DNA of 64,000 nucleotides from an uncultured Oscillospiraceae bacterium (lineage in GTDB: Bacteria; Bacillota; Clostridia; Christensenellales; CAG-138), in contig CAYZAW010000005.1 of the NCBI GenBank assembly GCA_964476505.1, forward strand, positions 1,205 through 65,204. The letters run 5' to 3'. Below are positions 4,242 to 58,408 of the stretch, one piece after another (within the stretch, counting starts at the first letter, position 1; each line of letters opens with the position of its first letter). A program made the position numbers and the translations under genes. The notes under the pieces are model-generated. The model ran no database searches. It worked only from the letters and a program-made list of their open reading frames with translations, and was not told the DNA's origin.

Positions 4242-4254
4242 GAGGTAACTTCTT

Positions 4255-7693: not shown

Positions 7694-7723
7694 TAAAAAC
7701 CGTTTATTTTGTACTTTCATGAA

Positions 7724-7758
7724 AAAGCGAGTAAAAGCCTTTGCTTCTTACTCGCTTT
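7724..7758. terminator. Bidirectional intrinsic terminator between convergent genes
   Basis: Perfect stem AAAGCGAGTAA ... TTACTCGCTTT followed by TTGATTTT. It lies between the stop at 7693 (+) and the stop at 7825 (-). Confidence 0.7.
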
Positions 7759-7824
7759 TGATTTTATATCTTGTGATTTACCTGCACCGTTTCACCTGCC
7801 ATGGCAAGCAGTGCGAATGCTCCG

Positions 7825-9054: not shown

Positions 9055-9075
9055 AACGCTACCTCCACACTTTAT

Positions 9076-9720: not shown

Positions 9721-9843
9721 GTTTTACAGTATATCAAACCATATAAGGTTTTTCATCAGAAACATTTTCTAAATGATTGCATTGATTTATCCATCTATTA
9801 CGAACATTCTTGCCATGATATGATTTTAACGTTCCATTTTTCG

Positions 9844-9871
9844 TTGACTTTTTCCTTTGTTACCGTATAAT
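9844..9871 (+). promoter_or_regulatory. Sigma-70/SigA-type promoter for carA
   Basis: TTGACT (9844-9849), a 16-nt spacer, then TATAAT (9866-9871), about 35 nt upstream of the carA start. Confidence 0.6.
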
Positions 9872-9904
9872 AAGTGAGAAGAAACGAAAAAGCGGGGGTA
9901 TTGT

Positions 9905-10975: not shown

Positions 10976-10976
10976 C

Positions 10977-15014: not shown

Positions 15015-15022
15015 AGGCGGTT

Positions 15023-15694: not shown

Positions 15695-15876
15695 AGTGGC
15701 AGTATAGCACGGATCGCAGGCGGTTTCTACGCGCATTCAACGTGTTTCGCCGCTACTTTCCTAATTTTTATCAAATCCGACTTCCATTTTTTGTAGACGC
15801 GGCGCTTGATTTATGCCATAATTTTGTGTGTATCAATATCATATCAAGGCAGCAATGCCGTCAAGGAGAACAACCA

Positions 15877-18282
15877 TTGAGATTGCTTGAGCCGCTTGCG
15901 CTATCCTGCATGAAGCAGTTTCAAACTGATTTTTATGAGCAGCGGAACGTTCAAAAGGTGATTCCGTTGCTGCATCCCGATGTTATCTGGGTATTCAGCA
16001 AAGACCTGACTCTGCACGGCAGCAATGATGTAGCGCGCTTTTTAGAAAGCCGCGCCGCAACCATGCAGGAGTCTTTTACGGTATACCAAACCGCATATAC
16101 CGCCACACAGCTTAGCGATACGGACTGCCAAATTTCCGGCAGCATGACGCTTGTCTACGCTGCCGCAGATTCCTCGGTGGTAACGCCCTTTTCTGTAAGC
16201 GCTCTGTTCCGGCAAACCGGCGATAGCATGCTTTTAGTTTACATGCATGTGTTTACACAAGAACCCCATACAGACGAAGCCCCATTGCAGGAGGCTTCTT
16301 TGCGTTCCGTTGTCAGCAAGCGGGCAGCGGACGTTCGCAAGCTGCGGCGCACTGCCCTGCTCTCTGACGAAGCGGAGTATCATGAAATACTGATGAACAT
16401 GCCCGGCGGGTTGTTCACCTATTCCGCCGAGGAAGACGCGCAGTTCGATTTTATCAATCAAGCCGTTCTGGATATTTTCGGATACACCGAGGAGGAATTC
16501 CGAAAGGTCTACAATAACAAGTTCGATAACATCATCCACCCGGAGGATCGGGACTGGGTGCTGGCCTCCATCAACGAACAAATTCAAGACAGCCCCTACG
16601 ACGAGGTGCGTTACCGCATCATCGACTCCTCCGGCTCCGTGCGGTATGTGCACGATGTAGGCCGCATCATTACAGACGCAAGCGGCAGACGCATGTTCTT
16701 TGTTGTGGTGATAGACATTACCCAGTATGTACTCTCCGAGCGGGCGCTGGCAACCAGCGAAAAGCGGATGCGCGCGATCGTGGAACAATCCAGCGACATC
16801 ATATTTGAGTACGACATCGAAACCGATCACGCCACATTCCACAGCGATTTTGAGCATATATTCGGTCGTATGCCCATCACGGATAACGTGAAAAAGCAGC
16901 TTGTGGCTTCCGACAGCATCGTTCACCCGGATGATATCCCCGCCATTGCCGCGTTTTTTACCAAGCTGCATTCCGGCGACCCCTATGTTGAAACGGAGCT
17001 GCGCATCCATACAGGCGACGGCGCATATCTGTGGTGCCGCGTATCCGCCTCCATCGTGTATGACGACTTTGGCCGTCCCTTTGTAGCCATGGGCAAGATC
17101 GCAGACATCGACAAGCAAAAACGCGAAACGGAAACACTGAAAACCAAAGCCAATACCGACCCCATGACGGGGCTGTACAACAAAACCGTTTCCGCCCAGA
17201 TGCTTTCCGAGTTTATTGCCGGAGAGGGCAAAAAGGGCTGCCACGCCATGTTCATGATAGACGTGGACGACTTTAAATCCGTTAACGACCATCACGGTCA
17301 CTTGTTTGGTGATTCCGTGTTGATCGCCGTGGCGGGCGTTCTTTCCAGAAGCTTCCGCTCCTCGGACATCGTTGGGCGCATCGGCGGAGACGAATTCATG
17401 GCGCTGCAAAAGTATGTAAGCTCCATGGCACAGTTGGAAAAGCGCGCAGAATCCATCCTGCACGCAGTTGGCGCTCTGTTTCCGGAGCTGGAGCAGCCCA
17501 TTCACTGCACCATCGGCATCGCGCTGTACCCCGAACACGGGCAGGATTTGCCCATGCTGTATCACAATGCGGATATCGCCCTGTATCACGCCAAAAACGA
17601 GGGCAAAGCCCGCTACTGTATCTATAACGCCGAGCTTGGCCGCGCCTTTACGGAAAACGATACCCCCATCCCCGTTCACGCGGAGATCGAAGTAGCGGAG
17701 AAAAACCCCGTTGGCAGGCAGTTGATTCAAAACGTGCTGCAAACGCTCATGGAGAAAAAGGATATCCAGCAGGCATTGCAAACCGTTACGGAGCTGTTGG
17801 GAACATATTTTCAGGTGAGCCGCTGTTACTTATATGAGCTCTGTGTTGACAGCGCAACATTAAGCAACCTGTATCAATGGTACGCGGCGGGCGTGGAAAT
17901 CAGCGATCACACCTTAGAAGGCTATACCATTGGAGATTTAAACAGCTACGCCGCCAATTTTGATGAGGACGGGTTCTTCTGCTGTCGCGACGTTCGCACG
18001 TTGCCCGAAAATTATGCCCGTTACAAGGAATCCCTTGGCATGCAATCCATGCTTCAATGCTTGATTCGCAATCACGAAAAGCTTTACGGCTTCCTTGGCT
18101 TTGACCAGCGCAGCGGCTCCCGGCTCTGGACGCAGGAGGATCTGATCGTGGTGCGGTATATTTGCGAAATTCTTGGGGTATTTATTCCCAAGCAGCAAAC
18201 GCCGGAGCAGCTGGATGCTGCCTCCGCGCAGCTGGAAGCCATGATGGCACACCTCAAGCATTTTTCAAAACCGCAGTCGTAA
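15877..18282 (+). CDS. Diguanylate cyclase with an NTF2-like N-terminal domain, two PAS domains, GGDEF and a C-terminal GAF
   Basis: ORF 15742..18282. The best start is TTG 15877, 8 nt after AAGGAG; ATG 15910 is the alternative. Motifs DPMTGLYNK...GRIGGDEFMAL are present, with a GAF-like C-terminus. Confidence 0.8.
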   Translation: MRLLEPLALSCMKQFQTDFYEQRNVQKVIPLLHPDVIWVFSKDLTLHGSNDVARFLESRAATMQESFTVYQTAYTATQLSDTDCQISGSMTLVYAAADSSVVTPFSVSALFRQTGDSMLLVYMHVFTQEPHTDEAPLQEASLRSVVSKRAADVRKLRRTALLSDEAEYHEILMNMPGGLFTYSAEEDAQFDFINQAVLDIFGYTEEEFRKVYNNKFDNIIHPEDRDWVLASINEQIQDSPYDEVRYRIIDSSGSVRYVHDVGRIITDASGRRMFFVVVIDITQYVLSERALATSEKRMRAIVEQSSDIIFEYDIETDHATFHSDFEHIFGRMPITDNVKKQLVASDSIVHPDDIPAIAAFFTKLHSGDPYVETELRIHTGDGAYLWCRVSASIVYDDFGRPFVAMGKIADIDKQKRETETLKTKANTDPMTGLYNKTVSAQMLSEFIAGEGKKGCHAMFMIDVDDFKSVNDHHGHLFGDSVLIAVAGVLSRSFRSSDIVGRIGGDEFMALQKYVSSMAQLEKRAESILHAVGALFPELEQPIHCTIGIALYPEHGQDLPMLYHNADIALYHAKNEGKARYCIYNAELGRAFTENDTPIPVHAEIEVAEKNPVGRQLIQNVLQTLMEKKDIQQALQTVTELLGTYFQVSRCYLYELCVDSATLSNLYQWYAAGVEISDHTLEGYTIGDLNSYAANFDEDGFFCCRDVRTLPENYARYKESLGMQSMLQCLIRNHEKLYGFLGFDQRSGSRLWTQEDLIVVRYICEILGVFIPKQQTPEQLDAASAQLEAMMAHLKHFSKPQS

Positions 18283-18306
18283 CGTCCAATTTTTCGTCTG
18301 TTTTAT

Positions 18307-18336
18307 CCGGCGCAAATCACCATGCGCCGGTTTTTT
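18307..18336 (+). terminator. Intrinsic terminator
   Basis: CCGGCGCA-N8-TGCGCCGG followed by TTTTTT, about 25 nt after the stop at 18282. Confidence 0.75.
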
Positions 18337-18445
18337 ATATGCGTTTTGTAACGGAAAACCTAGATTTCGTCTGCCTTTTAGAATCGGCAGTAACTTCGGT
18401 TCGCATATAACCCTAAAACACATATACTAATTTCTAAAATATACC

Positions 18446-18474
18446 TTGACAGGCGAGGTATCTTGTTGTATCAT
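18446..18474 (+). promoter_or_regulatory. Sigma-70/SigA-type promoter for the padR operon
   Basis: TTGACA (18446-18451), a 17-nt spacer, then TATCAT (18469-18474). Confidence 0.65.
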
Positions 18475-18495
18475 CTATCTCGAAAGTGAACGGAG

Positions 18496-18849
18496 GTGAC
18501 AACATTGTCCATTACATCGGACCTGATACGCGGTCATACGGAAACGATCATACTGGCAGCGCTGGATGCAAGCGACAGCTACGGTTACAAAATCAGCAAG
18601 GCCATACAGGAGATCTCCGAGAACCGATATGAATTAAAAGAAGCGACCCTGTATTCCGCATTTAGGCGGTTGGAGGAATCCGGCTGCATCAACTCCTACT
18701 GGGGAGATGAAAACATCGGGGCGCGCCGCAGGTATTACACCATCACCAGCCAAGGCCGCAGCGCCTTGGAAGCGAAAAAAACCGAGTGGGAAGACGCGAA
18801 AGACATTATTGATAAACTGATTTATACGGAGGGAACTTATCATGACTGA
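18496..18849 (+). CDS. PadR-family transcriptional regulator
   Basis: The winged-helix pattern ILAALDASDSYGYKISKAI...TLYSAFRRLEESG...RRRYYTIT is typical of PadR. The start is non-ATG (GTG 18496 or TTG 18505, after GGAGG). Confidence 0.85.
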   Translation: MTTLSITSDLIRGHTETIILAALDASDSYGYKISKAIQEISENRYELKEATLYSAFRRLEESGCINSYWGDENIGARRRYYTITSQGRSALEAKKTEWEDAKDIIDKLIYTEGTYHD

Positions 18850-46463: not shown

Positions 46464-47234
46464 TTACCCCATATAGGATTGATCCTCGGACAGCATCAGC
46501 ACAGGAACATTACCGCTGGCCGGCCTTACCACGTTTACATCCGCGCCGGGGGCGTATACGATGCAGTTTCGCTGATCCTGCTTCAGTTTTTCCATATAAG
46601 CCTGCTGCTCTTCCTCCGTCATAGGGCCGGGGCGCTGCCCCTCGGGGAATATGGTAATGAATTTCAATGCATATGCATCACAGCCAACAAAATTCCGTTC
46701 ATAGGGATCAAACAGAATAAAGTAGTCGCGGCCGATCTGGCTCATAATACCCGAGCGCGTATACATCATCTGCGTTCCAACTAAAAATTCGCAAACCACA
46801 TAACGGCCCAGAAGATTTGCCAGCCGTTCCTGCAGGGTGCGCGCCTGATTATCGATAATGTACTGCTCCATATTGCTCATGCGCCGCTGCAGCTCGTTAA
46901 CGTTTTCCGGAGAAGTGATACCGGTTCCCTCCCGCGTGAGGATGCTGGCTCCTTGCGGCATGGATGCGTCCTGCCACATGTCACCGCTCTGCTGCATGCC
47001 GCCTGTTTGCTGCATGCCACCTGTTTGCTGCATGCCGCCTGTTTGCTGCATGCCACCTGTTTGCGCCATACCACCTTGCGGTGATGAAGCATTCCATCGG
47101 GACGTTACGCCGCCGCCCTGCCGCATCGCGTTTTCCCATTGTTGCATGGAGTTATACCCCTGCGGCCAACCGTCCTCCTGCATCGTCATATTTCCCGGCT
47201 GTGGCATGCTGTCAATGTTTAAAAATTGCTCCAT
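46464..47234 (-). CDS. gerQ: GerQ-like spore coat protein (Q/G/M-rich repeat N-terminus plus a GerQ-type C-terminal domain)
   Basis: The C-terminal block LLGRYVVCEFLVGTQMMYTRSGIMSQIGRDYFILFDP...LKFITIF parallels the B. subtilis GerQ core (...F.G.I...GRDHIIISDP...YLDYITF). The N-terminus is Gln-rich, as in GerQ. It is adjacent to a cwlJ-family gene. Confidence 0.6.
   Translation of the reverse strand: MEQFLNIDSMPQPGNMTMQEDGWPQGYNSMQQWENAMRQGGGVTSRWNASSPQGGMAQTGGMQQTGGMQQTGGMQQTGGMQQSGDMWQDASMPQGASILTREGTGITSPENVNELQRRMSNMEQYIIDNQARTLQERLANLLGRYVVCEFLVGTQMMYTRSGIMSQIGRDYFILFDPYERNFVGCDAYALKFITIFPEGQRPGPMTEEEQQAYMEKLKQDQRNCIVYAPGADVNVVRPASGNVPVLMLSEDQSYMG
46991..47080 (-). repeat. Tandem 18-bp coding repeat (4 near-perfect copies plus 1 degenerate) inside gerQ-like
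   Basis: GCTGCATGCC(G/A)CCTGTTT repeats at 46991, 47009, 47027 and 47045. It encodes (TGGMQQ)n: ...GGMAQTGGMQQTGGMQQTGGMQQTGGMQQSGDM. Confidence 0.9.
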
Positions 47235-47260
47235 CTGGAACCTCCTGTCTTTTCACTACA

Positions 47261-47632
47261 TTATGTTTCCGCATAGGCGGAAGTGGGCGCATAAAAGCAA
47301 TGATCGCCTATGCGCGCAGCGGCATAGCCTACCCGGCTTGGAAAATTGGTGGGGCATTGGCTGGAATAAGGGTTAAAAAACCAAAGCGCTTCTCCGGCAT
47401 CCCGAATGCGATTCCCGGCAATGGCCCAATCCGCAATATCATAATGAATCTGCTCCGGACGCATGTTATAGATGTTTTGCCCGTTGTTGTCATCCATGGC
47501 GCATTCAAATTGATACTGCTGATAAATGATGTTGCGTATGCTGCCGCTGCCAACGCGGGCATACTCGCCTTCATTTGTATTGACGCGGTTCATCACCACT
47601 CCCGCGACAGCCTTCATCCCGTTATCCCCTTC
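47261..47632 (-). pseudogene. cwlJ: cwlJ/sleB-family cell-wall hydrolase, 3' segment (about 120 codons) of a gene split by the inserted element
   Basis: Track ORF 47261..47617 (MKAVAGVVMNRVNTNEGEY...HCFYAPT) matches the Hydrolase_2 (SleB/CwlJ) catalytic domain minus its first ~24 residues. The frame is open upstream through ...EGDNG to the junction core at 47625-47632. There is no RBS or start appropriate for a full domain. Confidence 0.85.
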
Positions 47633-47660
47633 ATGATACGCAATAAAGGCAAACTGTTGG

Positions 47661-49238
47661 TTAATACAAAATCACATCAATACTATGGTCGTTTACGATA
47701 ACGTGTTGAATGAGGGAACGGGCGATTTTCTGTTTGGTCTTCATATCAAAATCATTAAATTGCTCAATAATCGTCTCAATGCTTACCCCGCAATTCATAT
47801 TCTTCTTTCGCTCATTATCAGCGTTGTATAATGCGCCCAATTCCTTATGCTTTTGCTCTATTGAACGCGTGTATTCGTCAAGGCGTTTTCTCAATGCGCC
47901 AATACTTGAATCCAAGCCACTCTCACGAGCAATTTCAATTTCATCTAATAAGTTGGAGCAACGGTTGTCCAATCGTGCAATCTCGTTCTTTATTTCAATC
48001 GCACGCTGGTTTTCCTGCTTATCGGTACTTGTTGCTTCTATGCACCGCAGTTCATTGAGACGATACATCATCTTGTTATATACAAAGCACTCGATTTCTT
48101 CAAGCTGCCAAGCATGTTCACGTCCTGTACAAACATGTTTCTTGCGTCCATAGCAGTTTACATAATTACGACCTCGATTGTTATTAACAACCGTAAGGCC
48201 ATATCCACATTTCCCGCACCGCATAAGGCCGCTTAACCATGAATGCGTTCCGCTTCTGTCGCATTTAACTTGTTTGTTATTGTCTAATTTATACTGGCAA
48301 GCCAACCATACCTGCGAATCGACTATACCTTCGTGCGGTGCAAGCGTAACAAATGCATTTGAAATATTCGCAAATGTTTTTCCGTTCTTCTTTTTTACAT
48401 AATTGTATTCTTCCAGCTCTTTCTTGGTTCGTTCAATGTTTTTTGCATAGATGTAACAGCCGTTCGTCCCCGCATAACAGCTAATATCATCGTTCATTGT
48501 TGCACCCTTACCGTTTAAATACTGATAAACCATAGCATCTGCTTTCACATAGCAAGGATGCCGCAGCAGTCTTGCAAGGCCGGGACCGTCAAAGTTATAT
48601 CCGCGCATCGTCTTAATACCCATTTCGGTGAGTTTTACCGTCAATTTCCCCAGAGATACGTTGGTCGTGGCATATTCATGATAAATAAACTTGATAGTAT
48701 CTCGTTTTGATTCATCCACTTGATAAGCGGCGGTTTTCTTGCCATGTAGTTGAATATCAACCTTGTTATACCCAAATGGCGCATAACCGCCAAGATAGAA
48801 GCCCTTTTCCGCGCGGCTAAAAAAGTTATCTGCAACTCTCTCGGCAATCGTGTTTCTCTCCATTTGTGCAAATACCATGGCTATCATTATCATTGCCTCG
48901 CCCATTGACGTTCTGGTATCGAATTTTTCGCTACACGAAATAAACTGTACATTGTGGCTCTTCATAAGCTCCCATGTATTGCAGAAATCAAGTAGATTTC
49001 TACTTATTCGGTCAAGTCTATAGACGATAATCGTCGAAATCTGGTCATTCCTGATATCATCTAAAAGCCGTTGAAATTCTGGTCGTCCAACAGCATTCTT
49101 ACCGCTTCGGCTTTCTTGATAGACTATCACACTGTCCTGCTCGGATATCTGTTGGCGGCATAACGATATCTGGTCTTCAATAGACAAGCTATCCTTTTTT
49201 TCTATGGATTGACGCGCATAAATAGCGCATTTTTTCAT
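47661..49238 (-). CDS. Large serine recombinase (resolvase catalytic domain, recombinase domain, zinc ribbon, coiled-coil)
   Basis: ORF 47661..49283; the start MKKCAIYARQS at 49238 follows GAGGTG. It has the catalytic Ser context AIYARQSIEKKDSLSIEDQ, then VYRLDRISRN, a zinc-ribbon C..C...C pattern (LMRCGKCGYGL...CYGRKKHVCTG), and a long C-terminal helical region. No frameshift or premature stop. Confidence 0.9.
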   Translation of the reverse strand: MKKCAIYARQSIEKKDSLSIEDQISLCRQQISEQDSVIVYQESRSGKNAVGRPEFQRLLDDIRNDQISTIIVYRLDRISRNLLDFCNTWELMKSHNVQFISCSEKFDTRTSMGEAMIMIAMVFAQMERNTIAERVADNFFSRAEKGFYLGGYAPFGYNKVDIQLHGKKTAAYQVDESKRDTIKFIYHEYATTNVSLGKLTVKLTEMGIKTMRGYNFDGPGLARLLRHPCYVKADAMVYQYLNGKGATMNDDISCYAGTNGCYIYAKNIERTKKELEEYNYVKKKNGKTFANISNAFVTLAPHEGIVDSQVWLACQYKLDNNKQVKCDRSGTHSWLSGLMRCGKCGYGLTVVNNNRGRNYVNCYGRKKHVCTGREHAWQLEEIECFVYNKMMYRLNELRCIEATSTDKQENQRAIEIKNEIARLDNRCSNLLDEIEIARESGLDSSIGALRKRLDEYTRSIEQKHKELGALYNADNERKKNMNCGVSIETIIEQFNDFDMKTKQKIARSLIQHVIVNDHSIDVILY

Positions 49239-49290
49239 TGGTATATCACCTCTTAAATAACTTAATGGATGAGACGCTATCAATGAGCCT

Positions 49291-49488
49291 CTACGGTAAC
49301 CGGTCTTGACAATGCTTAATAACCGAAGTAGCTATTTGCTTATTGAGCCTTGCACGTTCATTGTCGGTCATTGCCGTCTCAAATACATTGTCGCTGACTT
49401 TTTTACATTTCACCGGCGGATAGCCTTTAATCATGATGTTATACTCATCATTTGTAGAGTCGTATGACATTACCATTTTATAACGCAC
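49291..49488 (-). CDS. Small hypothetical protein immediately upstream of the recombinase gene
   Basis: A 65-aa ORF (or 61 aa from MVMSYDS), 52 nt upstream of and co-oriented with the recombinase. No recognisable motif. Confidence 0.35.
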   Translation of the reverse strand: MRYKMVMSYDSTNDEYNIMIKGYPPVKCKKVSDNVFETAMTDNERARLNKQIATSVIKHCQDRLP

Positions 49489-49800
49489 CGCCTATCCGTT
49501 ATAAATATGGAGCCATACTTTGGCTTATTACTGCTGCAAAGTATCCTTGAAACGCATGCAGATGCAAACTGCCGGATACTGGCTGCAGTTGTGCATGCGA
49601 CGCTAAATCGACAGTCGCTTACGATATAAAGAGTACTATCTGCGAATTGAACGCAAGGGATATGATAATCAACATGATTATTACTTGATACAATACAAGG
49701 TCTACTGAACGCAATAGCAGTGAAAATATGCAAACCATAATACGCTTTCGGGTAACTAATACGTTAATTATCTGAAAGCGCTATTCGTCTACGCGAAATA

Positions 49801-51585
49801 TTGAAAATGCTTACCCTGTGTGATACAATATATGCTATATTTATGGCAATTACTCAAATTGATCATTATTCTGTTTACAGTCATATCACGAACACAAAAA
49901 CGGCGTATCCACGATGGTTAGAGAGAACGGGAGAAAACGCAGTAATGATTAAAGACTTAGAGCGCGGCAATATGTTGTTGGAAAGCATACAGACGCTGAA
50001 CGAGGCCGCTATACACTTATATGAAATGATGTTGGATGAAAGCGATGAAACGATGGAGTTTGCGCAGGAAATAAGGCAACTCATCGTTAGCATGCAAGAG
50101 TCGTTTGATGCATTGTACGCAGAGGAAAACGCCCTTATGGGGCAGCTTATTAACAAGAATGCGCTGTATTCGTTGGACAATTTAATGCGTTATGCTAAAA
50201 CCGATTCTAAGGCCGCCTGCCATAAGTTGCAGTTTGAGTTTCTTCCGCTCACCGCCGAGCTTTATGTTGATCTATATTTCTGGGGCTTCTGCTATCCGGA
50301 CAAGGATAAGATGTGGAACTATTACCGCACGGAAATGAACGAGTTGTGCCCTCTGCCAGTCCCTGAAAACGGCGAGTACAAGTATGATGTTTCTGTGGTG
50401 ATCATTGCATACAACAAGCTAGAATATACAAAAAAGTGCATCAAGTACTTTCAAGAATTCTTCCCACATGAACTGAATTATGAGTTGATACTTTACAATA
50501 ACGGCTCCAATGACGGCACAAAAGAGTTCTTTGAAACTCTTCACCCCAATAAGCAGATCGATCTGCTGCGCAACACGAAGAGCTGGTCGATATTGAGCCG
50601 TGTGGCAGAAGGGAAATACATACTTACCGTTGCAAACGACGTGTTAATACTGCCAAATGCCATCCAGAATCTTATAAAATGTATTGAAAGCGATGAGAGT
50701 ATATGCTGCGTTATGCCAGCATCGCCTAATGTTGCAAATTACGAATCCATACCTGCTTCCTATCGGGACGAAGCAGAAATGATAGAATTTGCGCAGAAAA
50801 ACAATGTGGCCGATTCTTCCCGCTGGGAACAGCGAGCGAGACTTAATCCGCCGCTTTTGTTAGCACGGAGCGATTCTTCGGCGGTGCATACACTCTGCAC
50901 ATATCATTATCCGTTCATGCCGGACAGATTTCTTGCATTTACCGACGATGCCATGAGCTTAGTTGCACGAAGAAGCAAACAAAAGTGTATTTTGGCGAAA
51001 GATGCATACATACACCATTTTGGAAGTGTAACAGTTAGCGATGTATTTTATAATGCAAGAAACGATATGTCGGAGTTTTACTCAAAAGGCCGCAATGGTT
51101 TTTTGCGTATTTTTGATATCGACCCTTGGAGTGTGGGTTTCTGCTACGACGCTGAACTGGTTTTTTCCCTAATGTACGATCTCAAACAGCCAACGAACAT
51201 ACTGGGCGTGAACTGTGGTATGGGCGATACAATGCTAAAAATCAAGGCAATGCTTGGCAGTTGCTGCCATAATACGAATGTTGGATTATATAACATAACG
51301 GACAATCTTTCTTACAAAGACGATCTAGCCGGGCTTTCTGACAATTTTGCGTTCATTGCCGAATGGGAACAGGTTGAAAATACGTTCAATGGTGTCAAAT
51401 TCTCCTATATTGTCATTGAGGATGTAACCGAAGGCGCAGCGTCAGAGAAAACGCTGAAAATGCTGTTTGCGAAGCTAATAGCAGGCGGCGTGATGGCTGT
51501 AAAACATCCAAATACAGTGTTTGTGGACGATCGGTGTAACAAAACAGACAAAACGGAGCACTGGCGGAAATTCTATAAAAGCTGA
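49801..51585 (+). CDS. Multidomain glycosyltransferase (helical N-terminal region, GT2 domain, C-terminal methyltransferase-like domain)
   Basis: GT2 signature VSVVIIAYNKLEYTKKCI...NNGSNDGT... and DD/DxD-like TVANDV. The C-terminal segment ILGVNCGMGD... resembles class I SAM-MTase motif I. The start is uncertain; ATG 49945 (MIKDLERG) is the alternative. Confidence 0.65.
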   Translation: MKMLTLCDTIYAIFMAITQIDHYSVYSHITNTKTAYPRWLERTGENAVMIKDLERGNMLLESIQTLNEAAIHLYEMMLDESDETMEFAQEIRQLIVSMQESFDALYAEENALMGQLINKNALYSLDNLMRYAKTDSKAACHKLQFEFLPLTAELYVDLYFWGFCYPDKDKMWNYYRTEMNELCPLPVPENGEYKYDVSVVIIAYNKLEYTKKCIKYFQEFFPHELNYELILYNNGSNDGTKEFFETLHPNKQIDLLRNTKSWSILSRVAEGKYILTVANDVLILPNAIQNLIKCIESDESICCVMPASPNVANYESIPASYRDEAEMIEFAQKNNVADSSRWEQRARLNPPLLLARSDSSAVHTLCTYHYPFMPDRFLAFTDDAMSLVARRSKQKCILAKDAYIHHFGSVTVSDVFYNARNDMSEFYSKGRNGFLRIFDIDPWSVGFCYDAELVFSLMYDLKQPTNILGVNCGMGDTMLKIKAMLGSCCHNTNVGLYNITDNLSYKDDLAGLSDNFAFIAEWEQVENTFNGVKFSYIVIEDVTEGAASEKTLKMLFAKLIAGGVMAVKHPNTVFVDDRCNKTDKTEHWRKFYKS

Positions 51586-51600
51586 TAAGGGGGTAGTCGC

Positions 51601-52374
51601 TTGAAGGTTGTAATTCTTGCTGGAGGCTATGGTACGCGCATCAGCGAAGAAAGTCAATTACGGCCAAAGCCTATGATCGAAGTCGGTGAACAGCCGATTC
51701 TTTGGCATATCATGAAGCTGTATTCCCATTATGGGCATAATGAATTTATTATTTGTGCCGGGTATAAACAGCACATGATCAAAGAGTATTTTGCGGATTA
51801 TTATCTACATCGTTCGGACATTACATTCGATTTTACACAGGACAATGCTATGACGATCCATAACAATGTGGCGGAGCCTTGGCGTGTTACCGTTGTGGAT
51901 ACAGGGTTGGACACCATGACGGGCGGTCGTGTGAAGCGCGTACAAAAGTATATTGGAGACGAACCATTCCTTTTAACTTATGGCGATGGCGTATCCAATG
52001 TGAATATCAATGCTTTGGTGGATTACCATAAAAAAAGCAAGAAAATTGCGACACTTACAGCCATCCAACCGGGAGGCCGCTTTGGCGTATTGGACATTGA
52101 CGCAGATAATATAATTAAAAACTTTGCAGAAAAGTCCAAGGAGGACGGCGGGTGGATCAACGGTGGATTTATGGCATTGGAGCCTTCTATATTTCGGTAT
52201 ATCGAAGGAGATACAACCATACTGGAGCGTAAGCCGCTAGAAACGCTTGCCCAAGAAAACCAACTTAACGCGTTCTTACATGATGGCTTCTGGCAATGCA
52301 TGGATACGTTACGGGATAAAGAGCTTTTAGAACGGCTTTGGAAAAGCGGCGAAGCACCGTGGAAGGCGTGGTAA
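51601..52374 (+). CDS. rfbF: Glucose-1-phosphate cytidylyltransferase
   Basis: MKVVILAGGYGTRISEES..RPKPMIEVGEQPILWHIMKLYS...FIICAGYK is near-canonical RfbF. TTG start after AAGGGGG. Confidence 0.9.
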   Translation: MKVVILAGGYGTRISEESQLRPKPMIEVGEQPILWHIMKLYSHYGHNEFIICAGYKQHMIKEYFADYYLHRSDITFDFTQDNAMTIHNNVAEPWRVTVVDTGLDTMTGGRVKRVQKYIGDEPFLLTYGDGVSNVNINALVDYHKKSKKIATLTAIQPGGRFGVLDIDADNIIKNFAEKSKEDGGWINGGFMALEPSIFRYIEGDTTILERKPLETLAQENQLNAFLHDGFWQCMDTLRDKELLERLWKSGEAPWKAW

Positions 52375-53466
52375 ATGATTGATTTAGAATTTTATAAACA
52401 TAAGCGGGTGTTTATTACCGGGCATACGGGCTTTAAAGGCGCATGGATGTGTGCGGTATTGCTGCAACTGGGAGCGGAAGTATCAGGGTACGCCTTAACA
52501 CCGCCTACCAACCCCAGCCTATACGCGTTAACGGGAATACAAAACAATATGAACTCCGTTTTAGGAGATGTGCGTGATTTCGATGCGCTGGCTGTTGCAA
52601 TGTGTGCTGCGCAGCCTGAGATCGTTATTCATATGGCGGCGCAGCCAATTGTACGGGAGGGTTATCGCGATCCCGTAGGAACATATGCAGTGAATGTAAT
52701 GGGTACCGTACATGTGTTCGAGGCGGCGCGCCGCTGCGGCACTGTTCGCCTGATTATAAATGTTACAACAGACAAGGTCTATGAGAACAATGCGGACATC
52801 ATGTATACGAACGGCTATTGTGAAACGGACCGGCTCAATGGCTATGACCCGTATTCCAATAGCAAATCATGTTCTGAACTGGTTACGGAATGCTACCGGC
52901 ACCTGTTGGTAAATAGTGATGATGGGCAAGCGAGTATCTCGGTTTCTTCCTGTCGCGCAGGAAATGTTATTGGCGGAGGGGATTTTGCGAAAGACCGGAT
53001 AATTCCGGATTGTGTACGGGCAATGAAAGAAGGTCGGCGCATCACGGTTCGCAATCCTTACTCTATTCGTCCATATCAGCATGTTCTGGAGCCGGTGTTC
53101 GCTTATTTAATCATTGCACAAAAACAGTTTGCTGATACGCGGTATGCGGGTGCATATAACATTGGCCCAAACGATTGCGATTGCATCACAACAGGCATGC
53201 TAGCGGACTTGTTTTGCGCGGCGTGGGGCTCTAACGCAGCTTGGGAGAACGTTGCTGAGAAAAACGCACCTCACGAAGCGGCATTCCTGAAGCTGGATTG
53301 CTCAAAAGCGAAAAGCATACTGGGCTGGGAGCCGGTATGGCATATAGAAACAGCAGTACAAAAAACAGTAGAGCTGGCGAAGGTATGGCTTGCAGGAGAA
53401 GACATGGCACAAGCAATGGAGGGGCAAATCCTGGAGTATATTAAGGATTGCCAATCATTGATATAA
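52375..53466 (+). CDS. rfbG: CDP-glucose 4,6-dehydratase
   Basis: FYKHKRVFITGHTGFKGAWM...GYAL.PPT.PSL N-terminus, a YSNSK catalytic motif, 363 aa. Confidence 0.9.
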   Translation: MIDLEFYKHKRVFITGHTGFKGAWMCAVLLQLGAEVSGYALTPPTNPSLYALTGIQNNMNSVLGDVRDFDALAVAMCAAQPEIVIHMAAQPIVREGYRDPVGTYAVNVMGTVHVFEAARRCGTVRLIINVTTDKVYENNADIMYTNGYCETDRLNGYDPYSNSKSCSELVTECYRHLLVNSDDGQASISVSSCRAGNVIGGGDFAKDRIIPDCVRAMKEGRRITVRNPYSIRPYQHVLEPVFAYLIIAQKQFADTRYAGAYNIGPNDCDCITTGMLADLFCAAWGSNAAWENVAEKNAPHEAAFLKLDCSKAKSILGWEPVWHIETAVQKTVELAKVWLAGEDMAQAMEGQILEYIKDCQSLI

Positions 53467-53494
53467 TTGCTGAGGCGTACTAGGGAGAAGGAAT

Positions 53495-54727
53495 ATGAAG
53501 AATATGCATTGCCGCAGCTGCGGGCAAACATTGGAGCATGTTTTTGTGGATTTGGGGATGTCTCCTCTTTCCAACTGTTACTTATCGGCGAATCAGCTTG
53601 AAAACGGGGAGAAATTTTATCCTTTAAAGGCATATGTGTGCGACAAGTGTTATTTGGTTCAGCTGGGCGAATACGAATCACCGGAGACAATTTTCAGCGA
53701 TTATGCGTATCTTGCTTCCTATTCGAACAGCTGGCTCTTGCATTGTGAGCATTATGTAAACATGATCACTCAGAAGCTAAAGCTTTCCACAGAATCCAAG
53801 GTGATCGAAATCGCCAGTAATGACGGATATTTGCTGCAATACTTTGTACAGCGTAAAATCCCCTGCCTAGGCATCGAGCCTGCGGCGAATGCAGCAGCCG
53901 TTGCAAGGGAAAAAGGGGTAGCAACCGTAACGGCTTTTTTTGGCACCGATTTAGCCAAAAAGCTAAAATCAGAAGGAGAGCAAGCTGACCTTCTTTTAGG
54001 CAACAATGTACTGGCGCACGTTCCGGCAATCAACGATTTTGTGGCGGGAATGAAGATTCTACTCAAACCATCCGGCGTAATTACAATGGAATTCCCACAT
54101 TTGCTGAATTTAATACGTTATAATCAGTTTGATACCATTTATCATGAGCATTTCTCATATCTTTCTTTTTCAACGGTATCACGGGTATTCGCCGCCAACG
54201 GACTTCGCTTGTTCGATGTTGAAAAGCTGCAAACCCACGGGGGGTCACTTCGTATCTATGCTACGCATGCGGAAAACAACGACTACCCTGAAACAGACGA
54301 GGCCAAAGCACTGTACGCGCAGGAGGAGGCGTTTGGCTTAAATGGGCTAACGGCATATCATTCCTATTTTAAAAAGGTACAAGCGACAAAACGCAGTATT
54401 TTATCCTTCTTGATTCAAGCAAAAAACGAAGGAAAACGAATTGTCGGATACGGTGCGCCCGCAAAGGGGAATACACTGCTAAACTATTGCGGCGTTCGGG
54501 ACGATTTTATCGATTTTACCGTCGACAGAAGCCCTTTGAAGTATGGAAAGTATTTACCGGGTACGCATATCGCTGTACGGCCTGTTGAAGCAATATGCCA
54601 GGAAAAACCGGACTATCTTGTGATATTGCCGTGGAACTTGAAGGATGAGATCATGGAGCAGTGCGCCTATATCCGAAATTGGGGCGGAAAATTCGTTACG
54701 TTGATACCGGAAGTGGAAGTATTATGA
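53495..54727 (+). CDS. NDP-hexose C-methyltransferase family protein (Zn-ribbon, class I MTase, C-methyltransferase C-terminal domain)
   Basis: It has an N-terminal CRSCG...CDKC zinc ribbon, FSDYAYLASYSNSW, and an IEIASNDGYLL SAM motif. The architecture resembles TylCIII-like sugar C-methyltransferases. Confidence 0.75.
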   Translation: MKNMHCRSCGQTLEHVFVDLGMSPLSNCYLSANQLENGEKFYPLKAYVCDKCYLVQLGEYESPETIFSDYAYLASYSNSWLLHCEHYVNMITQKLKLSTESKVIEIASNDGYLLQYFVQRKIPCLGIEPAANAAAVAREKGVATVTAFFGTDLAKKLKSEGEQADLLLGNNVLAHVPAINDFVAGMKILLKPSGVITMEFPHLLNLIRYNQFDTIYHEHFSYLSFSTVSRVFAANGLRLFDVEKLQTHGGSLRIYATHAENNDYPETDEAKALYAQEEAFGLNGLTAYHSYFKKVQATKRSILSFLIQAKNEGKRIVGYGAPAKGNTLLNYCGVRDDFIDFTVDRSPLKYGKYLPGTHIAVRPVEAICQEKPDYLVILPWNLKDEIMEQCAYIRNWGGKFVTLIPEVEVL

Positions 54728-55260
54728 TATTTACACCAACAAAATTTGACGGTACATTTTTACTTACGCAGCAACGTATGGAGGATGAGCGGGGGTTCTT
54801 TGCGCGTACGTTCTGCGCCGAAGAATTTCGGGAGCGAGGGCTTTACGAACACTTTGTTCAGTGCAGCATTTCTCACAACAAAGCAAAGGGAACCCTGCGC
54901 GGGATGCACTTTCAGTCACATCCCTATGAAGAAGTGAAGTTGGTTGCATGTATACGGGGCGGTATATTTGACGTGATCGTGGATCTGCGCAAGGATTCCT
55001 CTACATATTTATTATGGGAAGGCTTCGAACTCACGCCGGAAAACGGCAGAATGCTATATATTCCCCAAGGGTTTGCCCATGGGTTTCTTACGCTGTCGGA
55101 TGAAAGCGATGTATATTATCAAATGTCTGTCCCATACCATAAAGAATGTGCCACAGGGATCAGCTATCAGAACAAACGGGTCGGTATTCACTGGCCGGTA
55201 TCGGGCGAATTGGTTATATCAACGGCAGACCGCGAACGAGACAAGGAGTATTTGCCATGA
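54724..55260 (+). CDS. RmlC-like cupin NDP-4-keto-6-deoxyhexose 3,5-epimerase family protein
   Basis: ORF 54661..55260; ATG 54724 forms an ATGA overlap. The RmlC pattern ERGFFARTF...TLRGMHFQ...E.KLV.C..G.IFDV.VDLR is present. Confidence 0.85.
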   Translation: MIFTPTKFDGTFLLTQQRMEDERGFFARTFCAEEFRERGLYEHFVQCSISHNKAKGTLRGMHFQSHPYEEVKLVACIRGGIFDVIVDLRKDSSTYLLWEGFELTPENGRMLYIPQGFAHGFLTLSDESDVYYQMSVPYHKECATGISYQNKRVGIHWPVSGELVISTADRERDKEYLP

Positions 55261-56150
55261 ATAAGGTGCTGCTTACTGGCGCGAACGGCTTTATTGGGCG
55301 GTATTGCGTGAACGCCTTTCTTGATGCCGGCTTTGATGTATATGCAGCATGCCATAGTGATATGGCCGGCTTGCCGCAAAACGCGCATTGTTTTCTATGG
55401 GATATTAAAAATACGCAGGAAGTCATTAAACTGATGTCCGCAATAAGGCCATCGCATCTTGTGCATTTGGCATGGTATGTTGAACCAGACACCTATGTAC
55501 ATGCGGATGAAAATATCGACTGGCTGCAATACAGTATGTTTTTAATAAAGGCATTTGTTCAATCTGGAGGCAAGCGGTTGGTAACGGTTGGCACGTGCTT
55601 TGAGTATGATTTGAATCATAGCGTGTTTCAGGAGAACAGCACGCCGTTAATGAGCAATTCTCTGTATGCCACAGCAAAAACTAGCCTGTTTCGGCTTTCT
55701 TCGGTCTATTGCCATAATCATGGTGTAGAATACGCTCATGCGCGGCCATTCTATCTGTTTGGCATCGGAGAAAACGAAAAACGCGTGATTCCGCATATTA
55801 TATCAAGCCTGCTGCAGAGGCAACAAGTACAGGTTTCGCATGGAGAACAAGTTCGGGATTATTTATATGTTGCAGATGTGGCATCTGCACTCGCGGCAGT
55901 TTCTGCTTCAGAGATATCAGGCGCTGTAAACATTGGATCCGGCATAGGAGTGCAGCTGAAGGAATTGTTTTTGATGATCGAACGAGCAACCGGTTGTACG
56001 GGGCTGGTGCAGTTGGGAGCAATCCCGACTAAGCCAAATGAAGCACCGGTAATTATAGCGGACAACAGACGCTTGCTGTGTGAAACAAACTGGCGGCAGA
56101 AGTACAGCTTGGAAGCCGGTCTTCAAGAGACGATAGCGGCTATGCAATGA
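55257..56150 (+). CDS. NAD(P)-dependent sugar epimerase/reductase (SDR family)
   Basis: ORF 55146..56150; ATG 55257 overlaps the preceding stop. It has a VLLTGANGFIGR Rossmann motif and a YATAK catalytic Y-x3-K. Confidence 0.8.
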   Translation: MNKVLLTGANGFIGRYCVNAFLDAGFDVYAACHSDMAGLPQNAHCFLWDIKNTQEVIKLMSAIRPSHLVHLAWYVEPDTYVHADENIDWLQYSMFLIKAFVQSGGKRLVTVGTCFEYDLNHSVFQENSTPLMSNSLYATAKTSLFRLSSVYCHNHGVEYAHARPFYLFGIGENEKRVIPHIISSLLQRQQVQVSHGEQVRDYLYVADVASALAAVSASEISGAVNIGSGIGVQLKELFLMIERATGCTGLVQLGAIPTKPNEAPVIIADNRRLLCETNWRQKYSLEAGLQETIAAMQ

Positions 56151-56205
56151 ATTGGCTGGCCAGGTTTGCTTATTAACTACTGAATATGATATAAGGAGAA
56201 TAATT

Positions 56206-56940
56206 ATGGATCAAAACACAGCGTTTAGAATGGAACGTACCGCTGCGGCAGAGCAAATGGCGCAGGACGAAAAGTTGAATGCGCTTTCACTCGAGTGGAT
56301 GCAGCGGGCAGAGAAACACAAGTATTGCTATAATTATACATGGATGGGCCGTCCGATCATCAAGTTTCCTAATGATATCGTATTGGCGCAAGAAATCATT
56401 TGGGAGGTAAAGCCCGATCTGATTATTGAAACCGGTATTGCCCATGGCGGTAGCATCATCTTTTCCGCTTCTATGCTGGAACTTTTAGGAGGAAACGGCG
56501 AAGTGGCGGCTGTGGACATTGACATTCGTTCTCATAATCGGAAGGCAATTGAGGAACATCCAATGGCAAAACGCATTAGGATGTGGGAAGGCTCCTCCAC
56601 GGATGAAAAAATCGCCAATGAGATTCGAGCGTTGGCGCATAGTAAGAAGAGCGTTATGGTTTTTTTGGATTCGCTACACACGCACGATCATGTTTTGCGC
56701 GAGATGGAGATTTACGGGCCAATGGTAACCGTAGGCTCCTTTATGGTGGTTATGGATACCTGCATTGAAGCATTTCCGGCAGGCACTTATCAGGACAGGC
56801 CTTGGGATGTAGGAAACAATCCGATGACTGCAGCGAAAGCCTATTTAAAGGATCATAACGAATTTATAGTGGATAATGATTGTTGTAATAAGCTTTGTAT
56901 TACGGAAGCTTTTAGCGGATATTTAAGGAAGGTTCGTTAA
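56206..56940 (+). CDS. CmcI / cephalosporin-hydroxylase-family methyltransferase (sugar O-methyltransferase-like)
   Basis: ORF 56152..56940; ATG 56206 follows AAGGAG. YNYTWMGRPIIKFPNDI...KPDLIIETGIAHGGS is typical of the CmcI family. Confidence 0.75.
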   Translation: MDQNTAFRMERTAAAEQMAQDEKLNALSLEWMQRAEKHKYCYNYTWMGRPIIKFPNDIVLAQEIIWEVKPDLIIETGIAHGGSIIFSASMLELLGGNGEVAAVDIDIRSHNRKAIEEHPMAKRIRMWEGSSTDEKIANEIRALAHSKKSVMVFLDSLHTHDHVLREMEIYGPMVTVGSFMVVMDTCIEAFPAGTYQDRPWDVGNNPMTAAKAYLKDHNEFIVDNDCCNKLCITEAFSGYLRKVR

Positions 56941-57039
56941 ATACGCACTCCCTATGGCGGCTTGCGTAAAAGCGGAGTGCCGGGAGAATGACATACCGTA
57001 TCTGGTTTAAGTGGATAAGTAGGAGTGGTTATTATCTTT

Positions 57040-57260
57040 GCAGCTTTCTAAAAGCAACGCCATGCAGCAGCACCGCAAGAAGGTCGTGGAACATCCCTTC
57101 GGAACTATCAAGTGGCATGACGTAGCATACTATTCTTTGCCGTGGTAAGGAAATGGTCAGTGCCGAAGCTCCACTGAGCTTCACGGCATATAATCTCCGG
57201 CGGGCAATCAATACGGTAGGCACAAAAGCGTTTTTACTGTATCTCTATGCCCAAAAACGG
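57040..57260 (+). pseudogene. Remnant of an IS (IS1182/IS5-like) transposase C-terminus, frameshifted
   Basis: One frame gives ...QQHRKKVVEHPFGTIKWHDVAYYSLPW*. After a 1-nt shift the sequence continues as (G)KEMVSAEAPLSFTAYNLRRAINTVGTKAFL. The VEHPFGxIK ... AYNLRRAIN pattern is the conserved C-terminal end of DDE transposases of this group. The roughly 400 upstream codons are missing. Confidence 0.6.
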
Positions 57261-57336
57261 AGCAAAACGAAAAAATGCGGAGCTGCAAATCTAAAAAGAT
57301 GGATAAATTGGAGTAGAGTTCTGAGCAGAAAAGTAC

Positions 57337-57363
57337 AGCGACGGCAAAACCGTCGCTCTTTTT
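57337..57363 (+). terminator. Intrinsic terminator
   Basis: AGCGACGG-CAAAA-CCGTCGCT followed by CTTTTT. Confidence 0.65.
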
Positions 57364-57416
57364 GATACAAAAATGTCGAGAAACTCCCTAATTTAGGAAG
57401 CTTCCGGACAGGGTGT

Positions 57417-57493
57417 GGTGGAGATAAGGGGACTCGAACCCCTGACTTCTGCATTGCGAACGCAGCGCTCTACCAAGGTGGTACGCATCCCCT
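57417..57493 (-). tRNA. tRNA-Ala(CGC)-like sequence with a defective D-arm (probable pseudo-tRNA)
   Basis: The 77-nt sequence is GGGGATG CGTACCACCTTGGTAGAGCG CTGCG TTCGCAA TGCAG AAGTC AGGGG TTCGAGT CCCCT TATCTCC A CCA. The acceptor stem pairs and includes G3:U70. The anticodon arm (CGC) and T-arm are canonical and CCA is encoded. Where GCTC should pair with GAGC in the D-stem, the sequence reads TACC(A). Confidence 0.5.
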
Positions 57494-57585
57494 GCCCTTT
57501 TTACTCCCCCAGATTTTTTCTGAGGGAGTTTCTTAATGCCAAGGCAACGTACTACACGCTCTTTATGTTGTGTTCCATTATTGCG

Positions 57586-57650
57586 TCTCCTTCGCCACCC
57601 GCTTCGCATTGGATCAAGCGCGCCAAAAGCTCTCTGTCTGAAAAGGGCAT
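57586..57650 (-). pseudogene. cwlJ: cwlJ/sleB-family cell-wall hydrolase, 5' segment (22 codons) of the split gene
   Basis: GAGGAG RBS, then ATG at 57650. The sequence MPFSDRELLARLIQCEAGGEGD matches the conserved N-terminal helix of SleB/CwlJ (LLAR.I..EA.GE). The frame then enters the element and ends after 10 unrelated codons (AIMEHNIKSV*) at 57552. Confidence 0.85.
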
Positions 57651-57667
57651 GCTGCTCCTCCTGCCTG

Positions 57668-58408
57668 CTACGCCGTGCGTACATACTGCCGCGCCGCATA
57701 GCCTGTTGTTCCGTTTGCGCGAACCACATACCAATTTCCCGTTCGCCCTAAAATTGTTAAAGCCGCGCCGTTAGGCAGCTGGGTCAATACAACAGAGTCC
57801 GTACTGGGGCGGCTGCGGATATTCAGCCCGCCGCCTGCTGTCGCCACCGTGCCGCGCTGGGGCGCCAGCGGCTCTACAAACGGAATCCCGAAATACTCCG
57901 TAAGCGACCTTGCGATGTTTCTGGCGATCTCCGGCAGATTGTTTACGATCCAGTTGGCATCCTGCGGATTGTCGTGATATGCAAGCTCAATAAACACCGC
58001 CGGCGCGCGTGTTTGCCGCACCTCCCCGATGCGGGTGGTGGAAAGGGTGCGTACCCGCTGGGGCAGCGGATATATCTGCTGCAAATTTCTTGCGATGATT
58101 CCCGCCGCTCGTTCCCCGCTCACGCTGTTAGGCGCATAGTAGATATCCGTGCCGCGCACCTGCCCGGAAAGCGCGTCCGGCGCAGCGTTGGAATGCAGCG
58201 CCAGATGCAGGTCGTAATTACCGCTGTTAGACGCGCGTATGGACGATACCGCCGTCATATCCTTGGTATTACGCGTATATTGAATCCCGCTGGCCACCAG
58301 ATACGGAATAAGTTCATCCGCAAGAAGATTCATATAATACTCTTCACTGCCGCCAATGGTATAGGGATTCCCTTCCTGTGTAGATGGGCTGAGGTAAATA
58401 ACCGGCAT
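57668..58408 (-). CDS. N-acetylmuramoyl-L-alanine amidase (Amidase_3) with a C-terminal SH3-like domain
   Basis: ORF 57668..58591; the start MPVIYLSPSTQ at 58408 follows GGAGGG. It has HLALHSNA and FIELAYHDN zinc/catalytic contexts, and a C-terminal LNIRSRPSTDS...GNWYVV SH3_3 pattern. It lies 17 nt upstream of the cwlJ 5' segment. Confidence 0.8.
   Translation of the reverse strand: MPVIYLSPSTQEGNPYTIGGSEEYYMNLLADELIPYLVASGIQYTRNTKDMTAVSSIRASNSGNYDLHLALHSNAAPDALSGQVRGTDIYYAPNSVSGERAAGIIARNLQQIYPLPQRVRTLSTTRIGEVRQTRAPAVFIELAYHDNPQDANWIVNNLPEIARNIARSLTEYFGIPFVEPLAPQRGTVATAGGGLNIRSRPSTDSVVLTQLPNGAALTILGRTGNWYVVRANGTTGYAARQYVRTA

Follow-up and report, generated by a model that had tools for sequence, protein, structure and literature searches.

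The window examined here, a stretch of 64,000 nucleotides from an uncultured Oscillospiraceae bacterium (contig CAYZAW010000005.1), carries on its minus strand a gene for a CwlJ-type spore cortex-lytic enzyme that is split by an inserted element of 9,961 bp. The frame MPFSDRELLARLIQCEAGGEGD begins with an ATG at 57650, 9 nt after a GGAGG, then reads ten unrelated codons, AIMEHNIKSV, and stops. At the other end of the insert, the open reading frame (ORF) 47617..47261, which starts MKAVAG and reads MKAVAGVVMNRV...AYAET, holds the remainder of the gene, its frame being open upstream through EGDNG. In-silico removal of 47633..57593 yields an in-frame ORF of 142 codons, and the insertion point falls between codons 19-21 of this Hydrolase_2 (CwlJ-type) gene. 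Within the insert, the minus strand bears the gene for a large serine recombinase (LSR) of 525 aa and, directly upstream of it, a small ORF of 61-65 aa; a seven-gene sugar operon occupies the opposite strand. The start and premature stop, the open frame of the distal part and the joined ORF had all been described in the initial annotation of this DNA, and all were borne out.

Over its full length the joined protein agrees at 100% identity with P0001, the product of an intact 142-aa gene on a 1,194-bp contig of an ENA metagenome (ERZ15185968 NODE_147813; L001). Aligned to the window, this contig falls into two blocks, 57828..57586 and 47632..46674, which overlap by the 8-bp core GAAGG[G/A]GA, and outside the core position a single mismatch in ~1.2 kb separates the empty-site contig from the window's flanks. 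To judge from this near-identity, the same strain background also exists with an uninterrupted cwlJ-type gene. The junction on the recombinase side (attR) was found at 99.8-100% identity in seven independent sequencing runs (SRR10769912, SRR8925738, SRR8925741, SRR22315503, SRR29243442, SRR5891501 and ERZ28614528); in the first of these, a contig of 10,411 bp is 100% identical to window positions 47035..57445 and covers attR and most of the element. Exact protein look-ups retrieved contigs with the occupied junction from seven samples and one with the empty site from a single sample, all samples being different.

Assignment of the host gene follows from its architecture. Alignment of the joined product to Pfam PF07486 (Hydrolase_2), proposed in the initial annotation, covered profile positions 1-100 of 100 (E=1.8e-22). 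The domain spans residues 19-133 and is the protein's only one, without the N-terminal peptidoglycan-binding domain of SleB. The SleB equivalog TIGR02869 scored 46 bits against a cut-off of 236.5, only the C-terminal domain of the model being matched. Because the protein is single-domain, 142 aa long and fails the SleB model, the gene is CwlJ-type; the named homologues nearest to it belong to Dysosmobacter (~73% identity), and the host is probably a gut anaerobe of the Oscillospiraceae type. With the SleB catalytic domain 4F55 the joined protein gives a colinear but weak alignment (E=0.026), in which the conserved Glu of the ...ES/A.GE motif pairs with E16, that is, with a residue of the 5' fragment. 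A catalytic glutamate is common to SleB and CwlJ (PMC12331253). The insertion would therefore part the presumed catalytic Glu from the remaining fold and, since the cut falls just after this residue, neither fragment is expected to be active. The target codons encode EAGGEG, the most conserved motif of the family. A CwlJ-like protein of 230 aa on another ENA contig (P0002) contains an internal tandem duplication whose joint, …AIAG|GEGENGMK…, lies exactly at the GGEG att core; it could reflect aberrant recombination at the att site or an assembly artefact.

The two junctions also allow both parental attachment sites to be reconstructed (Table 1). The attP site reads GCCTTTATTGCGT-ATCAT-GA-AGGAG-ACGCAATAATGG and contains TTTATTGCGTATCATGAAGGAGACGCAATAATGG; it forms a perfect 9-bp inverted repeat with a 12-nt spacer centred on GA, and this GA lies within the 5-bp core GAAGG common to attL and attR. 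The attB site is ...GGTGGC-GA-AGGGGATAAC... and contains GGTGGCGAAGGGGATAACGGG. The one core difference, A in attL and G in both attR and attB, is located 3' of GA, in agreement with what crossover at GA predicts; crossover is thus placed, provisionally, at the GA of the GGC-GAA-GGG (Gly-Glu-Gly) codons. A natural attP form is available in a relative of the LSR, P0124, whose identical protein occurs in two contexts, integrated beside a cwlJ 3' fragment (L167) and in attP form (L168). The P arm of L168 is the same as that of L167 and continues into TGTCCTTTCATTTC-GTTGCGT-GA-AGGTAAT-GAAATGAAAGGACA; here the inverted repeat is perfect over 14 bp, and its centre is the GA of TGAAGG. Being a natural attP, L168 validates the attP architecture deduced for the window. 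The same locus (11555..18544) is a free attP form of an SPbeta-like phage, in which a 2,221-aa RHS/YD-shell toxin-like gene starts ~300 nt past attP.

Table 1. Features of the split gene, the inserted element and the adjoining host genes, by window position
Feature	Position	Strand	Remarks
Q-rich downstream gene, 256 aa, GerQ position	46464..47234	-	Also adjoins the split gene in other species (conserved synteny)
cwlJ-type gene, 3' fragment	47261..47632	-	Codons 20-142 + stop
attR core GAAGGGGA	47625..47632	-	From alignment of the empty-site contig
P arm inverted repeat TTATTGCGT	47638..47646	-	Of the reconstructed attP
Large serine recombinase, 525 aa	47661..49238	-	Resolvase + Recombinase + Zn_ribbon_recom; stop 28 nt from junction (attR side)
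Small ORF, candidate recombination directionality factor (RDF) or accessory protein	49291..49476	-	61 aa from ATG, 65 aa from GTG at 49488
Cargo operon, seven genes	49801..56940	+	Sigma-70-like promoter TTGAAA-17-(TG)TACAAT at 49801..49829 (promoter scan)
GT2 glycosyltransferase	49945..51585	+	Pfam
Glucose-1-P cytidylyltransferase	51601..52374	+	Pfam
CDP-glucose 4,6-dehydratase	52375..53466	+	Pfam
C-methyltransferase	53495..54727	+	Pfam
3,5-epimerase	54724..55260	+	Pfam
NAD-dependent epimerase/reductase	55257..56150	+	Pfam
RMNT_CmcI O-methyltransferase	56206..56940	+	Pfam
tRNA-Ala(CGC)-like remnant, 77 nt	57416..57492	-	~95 nt from attL; acceptor stem (with G3:U70), anticodon arm, T arm and CCA intact; D stem broken
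P' arm inverted repeat ACGCAATAA	57578..57586	-	Perfect reverse complement of TTATTGCGT
attL core GAAGGAGA	57586..57593	-	8-bp overlap of the empty-site alignment blocks; proposed crossover dinucleotide GA at 57593-57592
cwlJ-type gene, 5' fragment	57586..57650	-	Codons 1-21, including presumed catalytic Glu16 in CEAGGEG; interrupted frame enters the element and stops at 57552
Amidase_3 + SH3 gene	57668..58408	-	Ends 18 nt before the cwlJ ATG

The recombinase and its relatives

In keeping with its first description as an intact 525-aa enzyme whose gene stops 28 nt from the junction, the LSR matches PF00239 (E=3.5e-33), PF07508, PF13408 and the phrog_95 integrase family (E=4.5e-90). None of the ~130 positions fixed across an alignment of 11 clade members is changed in it, the YARQS motif with the catalytic serine among them. 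The window's exact LSR sequence is on record, and the closest relatives given by a homology search were 44-59% identical; these come from metagenome-assembled genomes of Oscillospiraceae and other Clostridia. GenBank phages searched with the LSR protein gave no match above 40% identity, and an IMG/VR scan with the clade alignment gave none above 39% and none at cwlJ.

Flanks were read for every relative of at least 44% identity in which this could be done, giving eight further lineages. Identity to the window LSR descends from 59% (L166) through 57% (L003), 55% (L002) and 54% (L167) to 53% in both L004/L005 and the near-identical pair L006 and L169, and to 44% in L082. In 8/8 the cwlJ-like gene beside the LSR is truncated, the break falling at the same codons (...GG-E|G...), with junctions reading TGAAGGGGAAGAC, GCGAGGGTGAC, GCGAAGGGCCGG, GTGAAGGCCAGG and AGAAGGGGATAA; in L082 both cwlJ halves lie within the locus, 10.4 kb apart. 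No split cwlJ was seen beside more distant LSRs (identity of 40% or less) at any of ~150 loci. The LSR lies beside the 5' fragment, converging on it, in L006, L169 and L082, and beside the 3' fragment in the other lineages, so that sub-lineages differ in where the LSR gene lies with respect to attP while the host site is constant. On these flanks, the clade is dedicated to a single host site, the Gly-Glu-Gly codons of cwlJ. It is nearly certain that the window holds an LSR-mediated, site-specific insertion in a cwlJ-type gene, at an attB common to the whole clade and with a structure that is fully reversible.

The DNA attached to these recombinases differs widely. L003, L004/L005, L167 and L168 carry genes of the SPbeta family and of large phages, among them YomW, YomX_C, YonD_N, NrdD, dUTPase, DNA polymerase III alpha, ClpP and PhoH. 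The L082 element (1174..11585, ~10.4 kb) is without phage genes and has a GC content resembling its host's; it encodes cobD, cobQ, an aminotransferase, a radical-SAM protein, a feoAB fusion and a GNAT acetyltransferase. Since the relatives include SPbeta-like prophages as well as islands of the L082 type, one recombination unit serves both phages and non-viral islands. The L006/L169 element (1..11600) exceeds 11.6 kb, with 48-58% GC against 60-63% in its host, and its cargo (among other genes, a response regulator with a Spo0A_C domain, a UvrD/PcrA helicase, TrkAH and PhoU/PHO4) is unusual if the element may leave the mother-cell chromosome. In L166 an additional small resolvase gene (657..1160, 167 aa) lies upstream of the small ORF and LSR pair.

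The protein specified by the two gene halves in the window does not differ from that of the intact allele, and no stops or frameshifts were present in the cwlJ 3' fragments of any locus examined. Selection was compared among three species with related prophages in cwlJ (L002, L004 and L167), whose flanking hemN genes share 66-78% nucleotide identity and whose LSRs are about as diverged as their host genes. Among them, the cwlJ 3' fragment has a dN of 0.015-0.066 with a pS of 0.5-0.95, no gene nearby having a lower dN. Such values agree with long-term retention of a cwlJ still in use; the same low dN would also be expected if most cells of each species were uninfected.

Partner ORF, cargo and host neighbourhood

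Directly upstream of the LSR, homologues of the small ORF, 61-84 aa long, are present in 7/8 relatives (L166, L003, L004, L167, L006/L169 and L082), following the pattern [IL]KGY.P..C ... ER..(L)N..L[VA]S; in L002 a gene for an IS200-type transposase takes its place. An AlphaFold model of the window's small ORF (pLDDT 83) has four strands and two helices, and gave no significant fold match in PDB or BFVD. The skin element of Bacillus subtilis has the gene of its directionality factor, skr, immediately before spoIVCA (PMC6957869), and by analogy with this position the small ORF is a candidate RDF.

Promoters were scored over 15 positions against the sigma-E consensus ZHATAXX-N14-CATACAHT, as known from the Bacillus literature. 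The best matches, immediately before the small ORF, were TCATAAA-N14-CATATAAT in L003, TCATAAT-N14-CATAAATT in both L004 and L167, GCATATC-N14-CATAAAAT in L006 and GCATCAT-N14-CATATACT in L166. These score 13-14/15, a level reached by 0.5-2.5% of random 150-nt windows from the same loci. L082 had no good match at N14 upstream of its small ORF, and the sigma-K pattern AC-N16-17-CATAnnnTA was not matched near the LSR or upstream of the cwlJ operon.

By its composition, the insert is foreign DNA, with 40-47% GC against 53-58% in the flanks and a sharp shift at both junctions. Scans of its ORFs against Pfam and NCBIfam detected no phage structural domains, as had been supposed from the outset. The structural, replication and lysis genes of an SPbeta-like prophage are absent, the element consisting of the LSR, the small ORF and sugar-pathway genes only, and its DNA matched nothing in phage and plasmid collections. 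No repressor-like gene is found in it, yet it is stably present, identical in seven runs. Two cargo proteins exceed NCBIfam cut-offs (TIGR02623 at 411 bits, TIGR02622 at 428 bits), and the gene calls were also made on an identical contig (L170). The operon represents a complete CDP-glucose-derived pathway to a 6-deoxy, C-methylated and O-methylated hexose, plus the GT2 glycosyltransferase. It recurs at 99.96% identity in another sample (ERZ4239965; L171 1-45), with TTGACA in place of TTGAAA; because the DNA upstream of the -35 box differs there, the sugar cassette also exists in a second context.

A tRNA at the element's end was considered as part of the mechanism and rejected: ARAGORN called no tRNA at 57416..57492, and Rfam gave there only tmRNA/tRNA-like ends at 29.6 bits, below the gathering score of 47. 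What remains is a tRNA-Ala-like relic, which may be the old att site of a tRNA-targeting island. A suspected transposase relic at 57153..57365 was likewise set aside, being without Pfam support.

Beside the split gene, the amidase gene and cwlJ are probably co-transcribed, since only 18 nt lie between them. The C-terminal domain of the Q-rich gene downstream is conserved next to cwlJ in L004 and L082 (BLASTP E=8e-9 and 3e-8). The Q-rich protein matched nothing in Pfam (Spore_GerQ included) or NCBIfam, its E-value against a GerQ sequence was no better than 0.004, and a homologue search with its C-terminal domain returned one unnamed match. Exact look-ups of the Q-rich and amidase proteins found neither on record. 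The Q-rich gene also holds a tandem MQQTGG x4 repeat (46950..47100, minus strand), within which five independent short-read assemblies break, at 47035. The cwlJ gene of Bacillus is reportedly sigma-E-dependent and expressed in the mother cell. It is there the first gene of a cwlJ-gerQ operon (PMC12331253). Sigma-E-like boxes upstream of the cwlJ start in L082 (11700..11760, minus strand; TCACCAT-N13-CATACAAT) and in L006 (11690..11730, minus strand; ACATAAA-N15-CATATATT) hint that cwlJ could be a mother-cell gene in these Clostridia too.

Proposed developmental excision and its alternatives

The element is proposed, with moderate confidence, to be excised in the mother cell during sporulation, like skin, SPbeta and gin, while the forespore keeps it. 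The element entered the cwlJ-type gene through attP x attB recombination by its own LSR. In the proposed scheme, sporulation would switch on the LSR and the small upstream protein, the candidate directionality factor, in the mother cell; attL x attR recombination would then free the element in circular form and restore the whole of cwlJ, allowing CwlJ to be produced and deposited in the spore. In the forespore, the chromosome would retain the element and pass it on through the spore. The sugar operon, with its vegetative-type promoter, would probably be surface-glycan cargo expressed in growth. Mother-cell excision is favoured because all tested elements of the kind excise in this way, because relatives have sigma-E-like promoters before the small ORF, because the gene halves are under purifying selection, because non-phage elements in two lineages keep an intact LSR, and because the element persists without a repressor gene.

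Several observations weigh against this reading. The best sigma-E match in the window's own small-ORF/LSR region is 10/15, which 51% of random windows reach, and a 12/15 site at 49855 is not significant, the window containing 26 such sites; the regulatory support thus holds for the LSR family and not for this element. The consensus, moreover, is that of Bacillus and may not transfer to Oscillospiraceae, and the mother-cell expression of cwlJ in this lineage is extrapolated from Bacillus, its GerQ partnership here being putative. The small ORF belongs to no Pfam or PHROG family and has no likeness, in sequence or fold, to known directionality factors. An exact-LSR look-up for an attP circle of the window's element returned the integrated form only. 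A JGI metagenome scan with the P arm, which would catch attP or attR, gave 0 matches, and one with the B arm gave 13, all chance matches in unrelated GC-rich DNA. Of the two junctions for which the initial annotation had proposed searches, then, the empty attB was recovered (the ERZ15185968 contig) and the circular attP of this element was not. The sample of the single empty-site contig, furthermore, differs from the occupied ones, so that the empty site is indistinguishable from that of a strain that never had the element, and it may be just such a strain. Of the developmental switch of the skin/SPbeta type originally suggested, the structure, the SPbeta-like relatives and the skr-like small ORF stand, and a sporulation promoter in the window's element, at chance level, does not.

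Many of these points suit plain site-specific integration, in which the clade uses the cwlJ GGEG codons simply as a highly conserved DNA target and the element has no developmental role; carriers would be cwlJ knock-outs in which other cortex-lytic enzymes compensate, and excision would be sporadic or would accompany element transfer. The target is indeed the family's most conserved motif, no sporulation promoter is detectable in the window's element, empty and occupied sites come from different samples, and most relatives are ordinary-looking SPbeta-like prophages, one of them also occurring as a free attP form. Carriers could in addition tolerate the loss of CwlJ, which in Bacillus is partly redundant with SleB (PMC13393411). 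The case for plain integration is reduced by the intact 3' fragments, under strong purifying selection in every carrier examined, by the ~10-kb non-phage elements that keep an intact LSR in two lineages, by the sigma-E-like promoters before the small ORF in five relatives, and by the excision during sporulation of every experimentally examined element of this kind in a mother-cell gene (PMC4191935, PMC5595907, PMC10747680); it is possible, though on the unlikely side. That the element is instead a fixed, dead remnant, no longer able to excise from a gene heading for decay, might be argued from the lack of phage or transfer genes, from the tRNA-like remnant, which suggests a mosaic, partly decayed island, and from the finding of the exact element in integrated form only. 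A full-length LSR with all clade-invariant residues, att arms that still give a perfect palindromic attP, halves 100% protein-identical to the intact allele, and an empty site in essentially the same strain background (one SNP in ~1.2 kb) make this very improbable. The sharp GC jumps at both junctions, in a window probably derived from a metagenome-assembled genome, could further raise the suspicion of a chimeric contig joining unrelated DNA inside cwlJ, but attR was assembled independently in seven runs, with a 10,411-bp contig 100% identical, the naturally occurring attB and a palindromic attP can both be rebuilt from the two junctions, which have a core in common, and eight other lineages have the same architecture; the probability of such an artefact is negligible.

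If mother-cell excision is carried further, the sigma-E-type promoter, small ORF, LSR and cwlJ att site might together form a portable sporulation switch, one that has travelled among the SPbeta-like phages and non-viral cargo islands of gut Clostridia. In the present host it would have become a domesticated developmental device, the sugar island being expressed in growth and dropped from the mother-cell chromosome at sporulation, with the timing or frequency of excision deciding which spores obtain CwlJ and hence producing heterogeneity in germination responsiveness. This extension is speculative and, as a whole, decidedly unlikely.

Relation to known intervening elements

Targets of intervening elements listed in reviews and primary papers are sigK, spoVFB, spoVR, spsM, gerE, kamA, spoVK and yabG (PMC4191935, PMC5595907, PMC10747680, PMC6957869). 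A search of the available library found no paper tying cwlJ or sleB to an intervening element or a serine recombinase, in line with the first impression that such a switch had not been characterised in this gene or lineage. The mechanism is known in kind; what is new is the target gene, the host lineage, the sugar cargo, and a dedicated LSR clade with a conserved partner ORF.

Closest in form is skin in sigK (SpoIVCA and Skr in B. subtilis, CD1231 and CD1234 in Clostridioides difficile), which is likewise an LSR-bearing, non-infectious element whose precise excision rebuilds an ORF, with a small gene just ahead of the LSR gene, in the way that skr precedes spoIVCA (PMC6957869). This likeness of the window element is read from sequence, and developmental excision would extend to it by analogy. 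The window element differs in that its target is the gene of a germination-specific cortex-lytic enzyme and not a sigma factor, in that its cargo is a sugar operon and not prophage remnants, and in that its LSR is a remote relative, none of the characterised LSRs of phages or elements exceeding 40% identity to it. With SPbeta in spsM (SprA/SprB) it shares the layout of att, small ORF, LSR and att, and relatives of its LSR reside, in a sporulation-related gene, on prophages with YomW, YomX_C, YonD_N, NrdD and dUTPase; a candidate sporulation promoter before the small ORF is a further likeness, of the relatives and not of the window element. Unlike SPbeta, the window element has lost or never had phage genes, its attB is formed by the GGEG codons of cwlJ and not by spsM, and the hosts of the cwlJ elements are Clostridia, not Bacillus.

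The gin element in gerE of Bacillus cereus ATCC 10987 (GirC and GirX) is, like the window's, a non-phage element with a serine recombinase and non-viral cargo, inserted in a small gene (PMC5595907), but it is 28.6 kb long with three recombinases, as against 10 kb with one, and has another target and other cargo. Small non-phage intervening elements are kept because reconstitution is selected (PMC6957869, PMC5595907). Finally, yin in yabG of Clostridium botulinum and vfbin and vrin in spoVFB and spoVR also occupy mother-cell sporulation genes, at a conserved attB in coding sequence (PMC10747680, PMC4191935); these are prophage-like and yin is confined to one strain, whereas the cwlJ LSR clade spans several species, in phage and non-phage forms.

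The occurrence of one unit both on SPbeta-like phages and on islands with CDP-sugar or cobalamin/iron-uptake cargo supports the idea of exchangeable modules. The clade would also offer nine or more related LSRs as orthogonal serine integrases of practical use, their conserved attB being defined and no fewer than two attP sequences known. If excision is developmental, the element would tie mobile-element biology to spore germination in gut commensals. In the known cases the interrupted genes encode regulators or serve spore assembly, and the hosts are mainly Bacillus, with a few clostridial pathogens; cwlJ would add a germination enzyme gene to this list and extend the phenomenon to uncultured or poorly studied Oscillospiraceae-like Clostridia of the gut.

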